5,948 nt of DNA from a virus (lineage: Duplodnaviria; Heunggongvirae; Uroviricota; Caudoviricetes): the IMG/VR virus record IMGVR_UViG_2579778745_000009; one strand, given 5' to 3'. Positions 1-4,716 of the stretch are shown piece after piece. The translations under genes were made by a program, and so were the position numbers. The notes beneath the pieces are model-generated. The model searched no databases. It worked only from the letters and a program-made list of their open reading frames with translations, and was not told the origin of the DNA. Every line of letters starts with the position of its first letter. Position 1 is the first letter of the stretch.

Positions 1-1
1 G

Positions 2-754
2 AAAGGGATAAGTGAAATCGCTGGCTATTATCCCAGAGTTATATCAGATGATTTGTTTTACGCTGTACAGGAAATTCGGTTGGCACCTTTTGGTATTAGC
101 AATAGTAGCAAGAATCCTATGCTAATAAATCTACTTCGAACAGTTATGAAGTGTGAGGCTTGTGGTAATACCATGATTGTTCATGCGGTATCTGGAAGTT
201 TGCATGGCTATTATGTTTGTCCGATGAGAAGATTACATCGATGTGACAGGCCATCAATAAAAAGAGATTTGGTTGATTATAATATCATTAATGAATTGCT
301 TTTTAATTGTAGCAAAATTCAACCAGTTGAAAACAAGAAAGATGCTAATGAAACTTTAGAGTTAAAAATTATTGAGCTTCAGATGAAAATTAATAATTTA
401 ATCGTTGCATTGTCTGTCGCGCCTGAAGTTACCGCTATAGCAGAGAAAATAAGACTATTAGATAAGGAATTACGAAGGGCTTCGGTATCATTGAAAACTT
501 TGAAGAGTAAAGGTGTAAATTCATTCAGTGATTTTTATGCTATTGACTTAACCAGTAAAAATGGACGAGAGTTATGCCGTACACTTGCCTATAAAACATT
601 CGAAAAAATCATAATTAATACGGATAATAAAACCTGTGATATCTATTTTATGAATGGCATTGTTTTTAAACACTATCCTTTAATGAAAGTAATATCCGCC
701 CAGCAGGCGATAAGTGCTCTCAAATATATGGTTGATGGTGAGATTTATTTCTAA
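2..754 (+). CDS. ybcK: Large serine recombinase, C-terminal part; gene continues upstream of the window
   Basis: Frame 2 is open from nt 2 to the TAA at 752-754; the track ORF 53..754 is only its TTG-initiated tail. The translation has a four-Cys zinc ribbon (CEACGNT...YYVCPMRRLHRC) followed by a long predicted coiled coil (ELKIIELQMKINNLIVAL...KELRRASVSLKTLKS), the typical C-terminal architecture of large serine recombinases. Consistent with DLP12 YbcK as I recall it. Confidence 0.8.
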   Translation, partial: KGISEIAGYYPRVISDDLFYAVQEIRLAPFGISNSSKNPMLINLLRTVMKCEACGNTMIVHAVSGSLHGYYVCPMRRLHRCDRPSIKRDLVDYNIINELLFNCSKIQPVENKKDANETLELKIIELQMKINNLIVALSVAPEVTAIAEKIRLLDKELRRASVSLKTLKSKGVNSFSDFYAIDLTSKNGRELCRTLAYKTFEKIIINTDNKTCDIYFMNGIVFKHYPLMKVISAQQAISALKYMVDGEIYF

Positions 755-1135
755 ATAATGATCTCGGATTTTAAGTTATGCTATGGTGATAAAGTGCAAG
801 ACAGAATTAATTATCTTTGACGAAACTTAATGGGTAATTACTTTGTTTGCTCCCACAAGCGAGTTTTGTACGGCTGTATTGGGGTAGTAAATGAGCTATA
901 CAATCTTAATCATTTGTTAGGTGAGAACTCTTGGTCGCAGATTCAAATACTGAAAATACGTGACAAATTATTATGAGCAAAATGGTGTATGTCACGTATT
1001 TTGAATGGTAGGTTAAAAAATAACACCGACTTTCGTAGGTATTACTAATAATAAAGCAGAGTTTTTAGATAGTATCAATGTGCTTTGTGTATATTGTGGC
1101 AAATAATTGGGTTGGGGGTACAATTGTGATTGCTT

Positions 1136-2577: not shown

Positions 2578-2609
2578 AAGTGTTTTAAGAAGGAGCAATT
2601 CTATCGATT

Positions 2610-2638
2610 TTGATTTTGGGAAATCAACACGGCATAAT
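2610..2638 (+). promoter_or_regulatory. Candidate sigma70 promoter for the nin-region operon
   Basis: TTGATT at 2610-2615, exactly 17-bp spacer, CATAAT at 2633-2638. The predicted transcription start falls at the foot of the 2642-2670 hairpin. Motif reading only. Confidence 0.35.
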
Positions 2639-2641
2639 TAT

Positions 2642-2670
2642 GTCACCGGAGCCTGAACAACTCCGGTGAC
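2642..2670 (+). other. Perfect 10-bp stem / 9-nt loop hairpin: ybcM terminator, or 5'-leader structure/operator for the nin operon
   Basis: GTCACCGGAG (2642-2651) and CTCCGGTGAC (2661-2670) are perfect reverse complements. Followed by TTCTGCGC, a weak U-tract. Lies 65 bp after the ybcM stop and 24 bp before the ylcH ATG, at the AT-rich to GC-rich transition. Confidence 0.35.
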
Positions 2671-2693
2671 TTCTGCGCTAAACGGGGACGTTT

Positions 2694-2795
2694 ATGCGCA
2701 CATACAATCCAAACTCTCTTCTCCCTTCACAGATGCAGAAATGCACCTGCAATTCTTTGCATCTAGCGTTTGACCTCTGCGGAGGTGAAGCGTGA
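2694..2795 (+). CDS. ylcH: Small Cys-containing protein (33 aa), first gene of the nin-region operon
   Basis: ATG at 2694 with GGGGA five nt upstream; translates to [33 protein letters not shown]. Its TGA (2793-2795) overlaps the ybcN GTG start (2792) in a GTGA coupling overlap. Below the length cutoff of the supplied ORF track. Position matches DLP12 ylcH as I recall it. Confidence 0.45.
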
Positions 2796-3247
2796 ACCTC
2801 TCACAAGACGGCATCAAATTACATCGCGGCAACTTCACCGCTATCGGTCGGCAGATCCAGCCTTATCTGGAGGAGGGCAAATGCTTTCGCATGGTGCTTA
2901 AACCGTGGCGTGAGAAACGCAGTCTTTCCCAGAATGCACTCAGCCACATGTGGTACAGCGAAATCAGTGAATACCTCATCAGCAGGGGTAAAACGTTCGC
3001 CACTCCAGCTTGGGTAAAAGATGCTCTCAAACACACATATCTCGGTTATGAAACCAAAGACCTGGTTGATGTCGTAACCGGTGATATCACCACTATCCAG
3101 TCGTTACGCCATACCTCCGATCTTGATACCGGAGAGATGTATGTCTTCCTGTGTAAGGTTGAAGCCTGGGCGGTGAATATTGGCTGCCACCTGACTATTC
3201 CGCAGAGCTGCGAGTTCCAGCTGCTCCGCGACAAGCAGGAGGCGTAA
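2792..3247 (+). CDS. ybcN: NinB/Orf-family protein (lambda NinB recombination-mediator homolog; reported DNA base-flipping protein)
   Basis: 151-aa ORF with a GTG start and GGAGG six nt upstream. The [18 protein letters not shown] segment resembles the RSLDQN core of lambda NinB. Occupies the ninB-equivalent position ahead of ninE. Confidence 0.85.
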
Positions 3248-3417: not shown

Positions 3418-3700
3418 TTTGAGAAAAGCAGCGCGTGGTCGGGAATGCCAGGTAAGAATCCCTGGCGTATGTAATGGCAATTCTGAAACGTCTGTACTGG
3501 CACATATCCGGCTGGCTGGATTGTGCGGTACCGGTATCAAACCGCCAGACCTGATTGCCACCATTGCATGTTCTGCCTGCCACGACGAAATCGACCGCCG
3601 CACACATTTTGTCGATGCTGCATATGCAAAAGAATGCGCGCTGGAAGGTATGGCGAGAACACAGGTTATCTGGCTGAAAGAGGGGGTTATTAAGGCGTGA
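3410..3700 (+). CDS. ybcO: YbcO-family protein (DUF1364, as I recall), Cys/His-rich putative metal-dependent nuclease
   Basis: ATG at 3410 preceded by AGGAGG, and overlapping the ninE stop by 8 nt. 96 aa with Cys at positions 13, 21, 39, 55 and 58 plus His 59 (..[23 protein letters not shown]..). The track ORF start at 3371 is a spurious upstream TTG extension. Confidence 0.85.
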
Positions 3701-4687: not shown

Positions 4688-4716
4688 TTATTAAAAATGG
4701 GGCGTTGAAACGCCCC
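4688..4716 (-). terminator. Intrinsic terminator oriented for the minus strand (porin transcript)
   Basis: Stem GGGGCG (4699-4704) / CGCCCC (4711-4716) with loop TTGAAA. On the minus strand the stem is followed by AUUUUUAAUAA (complement of 4688-4698). On the plus strand it is followed by CAAAAATAAAGGG, with no U-tract. Confidence 0.4.

Follow-up and report, generated by a model that had tools for sequence, protein, structure and literature searches.

The start of the nin genes in a lambdoid prophage raises the question of what sets their transcription going and what becomes of the transcripts that arrive from upstream. The DNA at issue, a stretch of 5,948 nucleotides (nt) from a tailed phage (Caudoviricetes; IMG/VR record IMGVR_UViG_2579778745_000009) that is referred to here, at its full length, as the window, contains a DLP12-type lambdoid prophage nin region with the gene order ybcK(3')-ybcL-ybcM-ylcH-ybcN-ninE-ybcO-rusA-ylcG-quuD-nmpC, and the site in question, positions 2610-2670, is the DLP12-type junction between ybcM and ylcH-ybcN. 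Under the lambda paradigm, nin gene expression depends wholly on N-antiterminated transcription from pR through tR2. For the window, the original prediction, made from the sequence, pointed to TTGATT and CATAAT hexamers separated by 17 nt (2610-2638) and to a perfect 10-bp hairpin (2642-2670), both of which can indeed be read directly from the DNA; it took the hexamers for a sigma70 promoter of the nin operon and considered the hairpin as a 5' stabilizing stem-loop, an operator palindrome, or the terminator of ybcM. The analysis described herein leans, by a modest margin of confidence, toward a dual reading, wherein the site is the nin module's own sigma70 promoter with a 5' hairpin that, in its 10-bp form, also ends transcripts entering from upstream.

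Positions 2560-2800 of the window share 99.6% identity with Escherichia coli K-12 and match several other E. coli strains and induced phages (e.g., PhiR34_1) at 100%, and MG1655 (NC_000913.3) coordinates are obtained by adding 569,674 to the window position. The comparative evidence, unless another sample is named, comes from 99 distinct leader variants gathered with an exact 20-mer from within ylcH as the search key, so that the promoter was not a selection criterion; upstream contexts and loop partners were sought in 146 loci from viral contigs, and the genome survey covered 5,426 complete E. coli genomes. The features on which the argument turns are as follows.

2610-2615, plus strand: -35 hexamer TTGATT (sequence reading, promoter scan, conservation).
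2633-2638, plus strand: -10 hexamer CATAAT (sequence reading, promoter scan, conservation).
2645, plus strand: predicted transcription start, A2645, with a C before it (placed from the -10 position).
2610-2627, no strand assigned: palindrome TTGATT-N6-AATCAA, spanning the -35 hexamer and the upstream half of the spacer (inverted-repeat search).
2642-2670, plus strand: hairpin 1, a perfect 10-bp stem whose core under selection is 2644-2668 (folding, covariation).
2652-2660, plus strand: loop of hairpin 1, CCUGAACAA, with the YUNR motif CUGA inside (conservation in the 99 variants).
2675-2676, plus strand: K-12 MG1655 RNA 3' ends 572,349 and 572,350 (Term-seq supplement, PMC7815308).

The TTGATT-17-CATAAT site is probably a sigma70 promoter, and the part of the original prediction that stands does so on comparative conservation. 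Each -35 position is conserved at 0.81-0.96, with TTGATT itself present in 82 of the 99 variants; the 17-nt spacer recurs in 96, its middle positions being variable (0.37-0.64); and the -10 hexamer is conserved at 0.80 (C), 1.0 (A), 0.98 (T), 1.0 (A), 0.92 (A), and 1.0 (T), such that -11A and -7T are invariant (100%), while -14G stands at 0.82. At least eight variants that lack the TTGATT -35 carry the consensus extended -10 TGTTATAAT at an equal distance to the hairpin, and these appear to represent a second, independent route to a promoter at the same spot. Several upstream contexts, moreover, contain a canonical terminator (GGCCTCTTCGGAGGCCTTTTTC) that ends 10-12 nt ahead of the -35 hexamer, which in those contexts would amount to the classic layout of a terminator followed by a promoter. 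Transcription is predicted to start at A2645 because of the standard 6-nt gap after the -10 hexamer; the start had originally been placed at the base of the hairpin, and this has to be corrected, as A2645 lies 3 nt inside the 5' arm.

Hairpin 1 is formed in the window by perfect pairing of GTCACCGGAG (2642-2651) with CTCCGGTGAC (2661-2670) around the 9-nt loop CCTGAACAA (2652-2660), with a stability of -18.3 kcal/mol (z = -4.8; matched by none of 200 shuffles), and a transcript beginning at A2645 retains a 7-bp stem of -10.6 kcal/mol. More than 30 stem sequences occur among the variants. With plus-strand G·U pairs allowed, the mean length of the ungapped stem is 10.1 bp (at least 8 bp in 94 of 99), compared with 5.4 bp for Watson-Crick pairs only and 6.9 bp when A·C pairs, the equivalent of G·U on the minus strand, are allowed; in the fixed 10-pair register, 136 G·T or T·G pairs are found vs 13 A·C or C·A pairs. 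In a 61-sequence alignment, 90.7% of the cells are paired vs 81.2% in shuffles (0/500), the covariation score is 0.403 vs 0.231 in shuffles (0/500), and both-side changes occur in 9 of 11 pairs, with slid registers reaching at most 44% paired. MAFFT alignment of the 99 sequences followed by RNAalifold found the same helix independently. Taken together, these patterns indicate that hairpin 1 is maintained as a plus-strand RNA structure and not as a DNA operator.

The extent of the selected pairing bears on where the RNA begins. The outer pairs G2642-C2670 and T2643-A2669 are retained in 62% and 80% of variants, respectively, compared with 92-100% from C2644 inward, and the 4-6 bp stems of four variants (L261, L274, L266, and L303) start exactly 7 nt past the -10 hexamer. 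The drop in pairing outside 2644 and the placement of these short stems therefore suggest that the selected structure begins at the predicted +1, as would be expected for the 5' end of a local transcript, and the proposal of a 5' stem-loop is thereby strengthened. The loop is likewise constrained: T2654, G2655, A2656, and C2658 are invariant (consensus YYUGAACAM), and the loop persists across the more than 30 stems and also on short stems whose downstream leader is unrelated, as in variants where the cassette is followed directly by a DUF1367 gene. A palindrome-only scan of viral contigs (TTGATT-N6-AATCAA-N5-CATAAT) yielded 84 distinct downstream sequences, in 70 of which a TGARC loop tops a hairpin of 7 bp or more that starts no more than 8 nt from the -10 hexamer; in 10 of the remaining 14, a CCTGAACAA-type loop is still present but its stem is shorter, bulged, or interrupted, and the other four (L264, L268, L269, and L276), with neither hairpin nor loop, look like unrelated pattern matches.

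In K-12, an RNA 3' end lies just downstream of hairpin 1. The Term-seq data of Adams et al. (2021; PMC7815308) include 572,349 (+), from lysogeny broth (LB) at an optical density of 2.0 with a read count of 1,585, and 572,350 (+), from the third tab (probably M63 0.4) with a read count of 1,859, both classed as 'orphan' and located 19 nt upstream of ylcH. The corresponding window positions, 2675 and 2676, are 5-6 nt beyond the 10-bp stem and 7-8 nt beyond the conserved core, and ybcM is assigned no other 3' end in the same Term-seq data. Both ends are absent from the Rho-dependent (bicyclomycin) list, which covers exponential LB only, a condition where the end was undetected (PMC7815308). The constitutive sigma70 promoter GTGGCA-17-TACAAT has been reported for ybcLM, in association with H-NS (Shimada et al., 2014; PMC3946193), and the promoter scan independently lists this promoter upstream of ybcL at window positions 1096-1124. 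The simplest reading of the 2675/2676 ends is that hairpin 1 ends the ybcLM mRNA; the idea of a ybcM terminator thus gains in vivo support despite the poor U-tract.

The same interval is found well beyond DLP12. Megablast of 2560-2800 gave matches in 2,828 of the 5,426 genomes, most of them beginning at query position 49-50, which is window position 2608-2609, just ahead of the -35 hexamer (~1,700 other E. coli prophages); the 93-nt core 2608-2700 occurs in 4,179 of the 5,426 genomes (77%), at 6,050 places and in up to 4 copies per genome. Upstream of it, the viral-contig loci show 78 unrelated contexts. The upstream neighbors observed are ren with two hypothetical genes, a HEPN-domain pair, ybcLM (as here), a recombinase with an esterase (phage 4A7), or other genes (HK639 and phi80). 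The boundary at 2608 and the unrelated upstream contexts thus identify the interval as the left edge of the nin module, neither ybcLM cargo nor a DLP12-specific repair. Positions 2608-2800 form the 5' control cassette with which the ybcN/ninB-type nin module begins in lambdoid phages, and the promoter would be ancestral to the module. The cassette is also present in intact phages that retain pR, O, P, and ren (4A7, HK639, phi80, and the PhiR phages). A local promoter had originally been thought necessary on the grounds that the early region upstream is replaced in the window; the occurrence of the cassette in these intact phages contradicts that reason, though not the expectation of a promoter itself.

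Two further observations concern the surroundings of the cassette. One viral contig (L259) contains two full copies, at 7795-7823 and 9728-9756, 1.9 kb apart, with a degenerate ylcH and foreign DNA after the first one; the arrangement suggests that the cassette acts as a recombination joint for cargo insertion. In addition, a ybcK-type serine recombinase is located upstream of the cassette both in DLP12 (ybcK, window 1-754, with ybcLM) and in phage 4A7 (L006, with an esterase), and cargo beside the cassette may accordingly represent recombinase-borne insertion.

Several points weigh against the dual reading. On the promoter side, the hexamers make 9 of 12 consensus matches in the promoter scan, with a non-consensus C at -12, and promoter-like sites in the window number 14 vs 15.2 ± 3.8 in shuffles; taken by itself, the hexamer match does not exceed chance. 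A 5' end at these coordinates was not found in the text-form Cappable-seq and SMRT-Cappable-seq tables (PMC4782308, PMC6131387). Genomic SELEX (systematic evolution of ligands by exponential enrichment) with sigma70 holoenzyme shows no ybcM>ylcH/ybcN peak in the text of PMC3946193, a weak negative given the limited resolution and the cut-off of the assay, and the peaks listed there are for ybcK>ybcL and within ybcLM. On the terminator side, the tail past the stem, UUCUGCGC, holds 3 U, below the level of at least 5 U in 8 nt, and the terminator scan of the window did not call hairpin 1; the 3' end could, furthermore, reflect an exonuclease stop or trimming to the hairpin instead of termination, or could be that of a promoter-proximal RNA of ~31 nt. 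Two conserved elements exceed what the dual reading calls for: the AATCAA of the spacer, conserved at 0.73-1.0 and thus on par with the -35 hexamer, is without explanation from a sigma70 promoter, a terminator, or a stabilizer, and the conserved loop is unexplained, as neither a terminator nor a 5' stabilizer requires a specific loop. Lastly, in the 99-variant set the invariance of the ylcH block at 2730-2764 is circular, this block having supplied the 20-mer used as the search key.

Some of these points are taken up by an account, unlikely but worth weighing, in which hairpin 1 is a terminator or 3' protective hairpin at the tR2 position and nothing more, with TTGATT...CATAAT inactive and kept as a protein-binding palindrome or a recombination linker. 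The Term-seq ends 5-6 nt past the stem, the empty ybcM-ylcH spacer in the sigma70 holoenzyme SELEX, the chance-level hexamers, and the conservation of AATCAA beyond sigma70 needs would all agree with it, as would the mosaic joint that falls exactly here and the two cassette copies that flank the L259 insertion. It does not, however, predict promoter-like conservation, in which -11A and -7T are invariant and the 17-nt spacing is fixed around a variable mid-spacer, nor the different extended -10 sequences at the same position. A second terminator would also be redundant in the several contexts that have a separate canonical one just upstream; promoter and loop are kept in short-stem variants without a U-tract; and pairing selection ends at the predicted +1.

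The conserved loop and the spacer palindrome, for their part, point to a recognition step. Of the known binding sites compared with 2610-2627, that of FNR was rejected, since the TTGAT/ATCAA half-sites are 8 nt apart vs 4 in the consensus, and the consensus sequences of IHF and Fis do not fit; the palindrome is nonetheless a possible regulator site. For the loop, a nut site (boxA plus boxB) was considered. BoxB is a GNRNA pentaloop on a short stem, with a conserved closing pair and boxA upstream. The GAACA of the loop is readable as a boxB-like pentaloop closed by U2654-A2660, but boxA is missing and the closing A is a C in ~30% of variants; a nut site is also disfavored because the cassette occurs in phages with differing antitermination systems. 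A complementary loop partner was sought in the window, with nothing positional found, and the complement TGTTCAG occurs 109 times vs ~82 expected in the 146 loci, an excess due to related coding sequences and showing no positional enrichment. Rfam covariance models, scanned over the whole window, gave no family match at E <= 1, and a genome-contig scan with the loose pattern TGAACA-N8-14-GACTTCTGCGC returned chance matches for the most part, the real ones being only those in Lelliottia wanjuensis and Enterobacter vonholyi. A speculative proposal, put at the same low level as the terminator-only account, is that the cassette serves as an RNA-recognition switch, in which the YUNR loop, possibly together with TTGATT-N6-AATCAA, would be read by a phage or host protein or RNA factor that decides between a stop at +31 and read-on, thereby setting ybcN/orf and rusA expression independently of pR and N.

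Doubtful to a slightly greater degree is a promoter-proximal attenuator, in which most polymerases would halt at +31 to leave an RNA of ~31 nt (A2645-G2675), ylcH-ybcN then needing antitermination or a loop-recognizing factor, in loose likeness to the short terminated RNA that lambda makes from pR'. Positions 2675/2676, at 7-8 nt past the end of the core at 2668, have normal terminator geometry for such an event, the loop and spacer element are conserved, and rusA and the nin genes are weakly expressed in K-12 according to the cited literature. The truncated stem, on the other hand, has just 7 bp (-10.6 kcal/mol) and a tail with 3 U; short-stem variants are without any U-tract; recovery of a 31-nt RNA by Term-seq is uncertain; no antiterminator partner has been identified; and ylcH RNA is detectable in K-12. 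The least tenable explanation by far is a DNA operator, on which a dimeric repressor bound to the 10-bp inverted repeat (a perfect palindrome in the window, at -3 to +26) would form a roadblock past the start site: DNA symmetry is not conserved, as the Watson-Crick-only and G·U-inclusive stem lengths and the pair counts given above make plain, and more than 30 stem sequences surround a conserved asymmetric loop, so that the G·U excess and the covariation therefore eliminate the operator originally entertained.

Downstream of hairpin 1, the cassette continues with the following features, of which hairpin 2 and the annotated ylcH, like the palindrome half formed by the -35 hexamer, had been overlooked by the original prediction.

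2675-2699, plus strand: hairpin 2, GCGCTAAACG / GGGA loop / CGTTTA(T)GCGC (register-based scoring of variants).
2694-2795, plus strand: ylcH, a 33-codon upstream open reading frame between hairpin 1 and ybcN (MG1655 annotation).
2792-3247, plus strand: ybcN, first nin gene, a distant NinB/Orf relative (Pfam NinB match).

A register-based script recovered hairpin 2 in all 99 variants, on 8 distinct compensated stems; MAFFT with RNAalifold missed it, the leader types having been misaligned. Its loop is the Shine-Dalgarno-like GGGA, and the ylcH AUG lies in its 3' arm in all 99, a configuration suggestive of a translational control element. The CsrA-type motif likewise consists of a GGA in a hairpin loop. 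The TGA of ylcH overlaps the GTG of ybcN (GTGA), and in every aligned variant the ylcH frame is preserved together with an ATGA/GTGA overlap, irrespective of the gene that follows (ybcN, NinB, or other); ylcH thus appears to be translationally coupled to ybcN. Folding of the leader between A2645 and ybcN gives -50.5 kcal/mol (z = -4.9), and the Pfam NinB match of ybcN has E = 1.3e-4, which falls short of the curated cut-off. In K-12, ylcH RNA is detectable and rises ~4-fold in microaerobic conditions, with no known regulator. The sole K-12 difference within 2560-2800 is at position 2786 (GGAGGT here, GGAGGG in MG1655), where the T lies inside the ybcN ribosome-binding site (Shine-Dalgarno) and also alters one ylcH codon.

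The coding sequence of ylcH has features of its own. Its C-terminal part (CDFLHS; GCGATTTTYTGCATTC) resembles codons ~21-28 of DUF1367 genes, which directly follow the cassette in L261 and L274, and ylcH may be a relic of module exchange. A block at 2730-2764, CAGATGCA-GAAA-TGCACCTG, is invariant in six BLAST-derived homologues, phi80 included, and is followed in many variants by GATTTTYTG, with the terminator scan listing 2734-2751; this block may be an attenuator inside the small open reading frame, and Term-seq (PMC7815308) has no 3' end at 2730-2764.

Farther downstream, a 2026 paper places the strongest genomic-SELEX peak of HusR (YnfL, LysR-type) between ybcO and rusA, at approximately 3650-3700 of the window where ybcO ends, and describes stationary-phase activation of rusA-ylcG. 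Scanning with the degenerate HusR box consensus CnGnnnAnnTnnnCnG turned up a chance-level match only, the two listed ybcO>rusA boxes being off-consensus and not searched for. rusA may therefore be under its own control, apart from the 2608-2800 cassette, and the remark in the original prediction that rusA is poorly expressed retains a loose relevance, as a separate HusR-dependent region lies just upstream of that gene. At the far end of the window, a strong intrinsic terminator, GGGGCGTTTCAACGCCCC with a T-run (4689-4716, minus strand), was listed by the terminator scan downstream of nmpC and coincides with the Term-seq 3' end 574,366 (-), which is window position 4692, with a read count of 66,408 (PMC7815308); nmpC is intact in the window and interrupted by IS5 in K-12.

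Under the dual reading, the parts of the cassette would operate in sequence. The sigma70 promoter TTGATT-17-CATAAT would initiate at approximately A2645, and the RNA would open directly with a stem-loop (core 2644-2668) that bears the conserved loop YYUGAACAM and may protect the 5' end. Hairpin 2 would follow, with the ribosome-binding site shown in its loop and the ylcH AUG sequestered, and the overlapping stop and start would couple translation of ylcH to that of the first nin gene. As the window's stem reaches 2-3 bp upstream of the start site, RNA coming in from upstream would form the longer, 10-bp hairpin, which would give such RNA (that of ybcLM in the window, or transcripts from pR or of cargo genes in intact phages) its 3' end at 2675/2676. 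Hairpin 1, at the map position of lambda tR2, would in this way insulate the nin operon, which would restart from its own promoter. The terminator and 5' stem-loop roles of hairpin 1 are compatible with each other.

A layout different from the lambda paradigm is hence suggested in many lambdoid phages and cryptic prophages, in which transcription entering from upstream is halted and begins anew at a promoter belonging to the nin module. A self-contained promoter would let the YbcN/Orf-like and RusA recombination functions be expressed from repressed or defective prophages. Hairpin 1 also accounts for the 'orphan' Term-seq 3' end in K-12, and the cassette marks a hot mosaic joint for inserted cargo such as ybcLM, toxin-antitoxin pairs, and esterases. 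The -10 hexamer, the stem, and the loop provide concrete handles on the control of the DLP12 nin genes.

Comparison with known systems places the cassette near several of them. Hairpin 1 shares with lambda tR2, which lies between ren and ninB, the map position where the nin region begins and the form of a rightward-strand RNA hairpin, and the measured RNA 3' end just past it recalls the ability of tR2 to stop unmodified polymerases; tR2, however, has a canonical U run and no promoter, whereas the cassette has the tail UUCUGCGC, a conserved promoter ahead, and a conserved loop. Homology to tR2 (40,590-40,630) was rejected, as the lambda ren-ninB spacer CAGGCCTGC...GCAGGCCTTTTTATTT is unrelated and lambda is not among the phage matches. 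5'-terminal stem-loops stabilize bacterial mRNAs, as in the ompA type. Hairpin 1 resembles these in that it is predicted to start no more than 1 nt from the 5' end, with no single-stranded 5' segment, but the ompA type needs no specific loop, whereas the loop of hairpin 1 is conserved, and the 5' end here is a predicted one. Lambda pR' with its 6S RNA likewise combines a promoter closely ahead of a terminator-like hairpin with a conserved promoter-spacer element; the cassette differs in lying ~1.6 kb upstream of Q (ybcN start 2792, quuD start 4282), pR' being downstream, in having no -10-like pause element or Q-binding element identified within it, and in its association with varying Q types, such that the likeness to pR' is best regarded as a resemblance only.

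The remaining parallels concern the small reading frame and the second hairpin. The 'interlinked genes' of lambda ninR, with their ATGA/GTGA coupling, are matched by ylcH, whose stop overlaps the next start in every variant, although ylcH is a 33-codon open reading frame with a hairpin-masked start that precedes at least three unrelated first genes. A homologue of hairpin 2 is the feature annotated as 'IR4' in phage phi80 (GenBank JX871397), a record in which only the repeat is annotated, with no promoter, hairpin 1, or small open reading frame marked. In summary, the kinds of element assembled here are all known; the cassette family itself is unannotated and very widespread.

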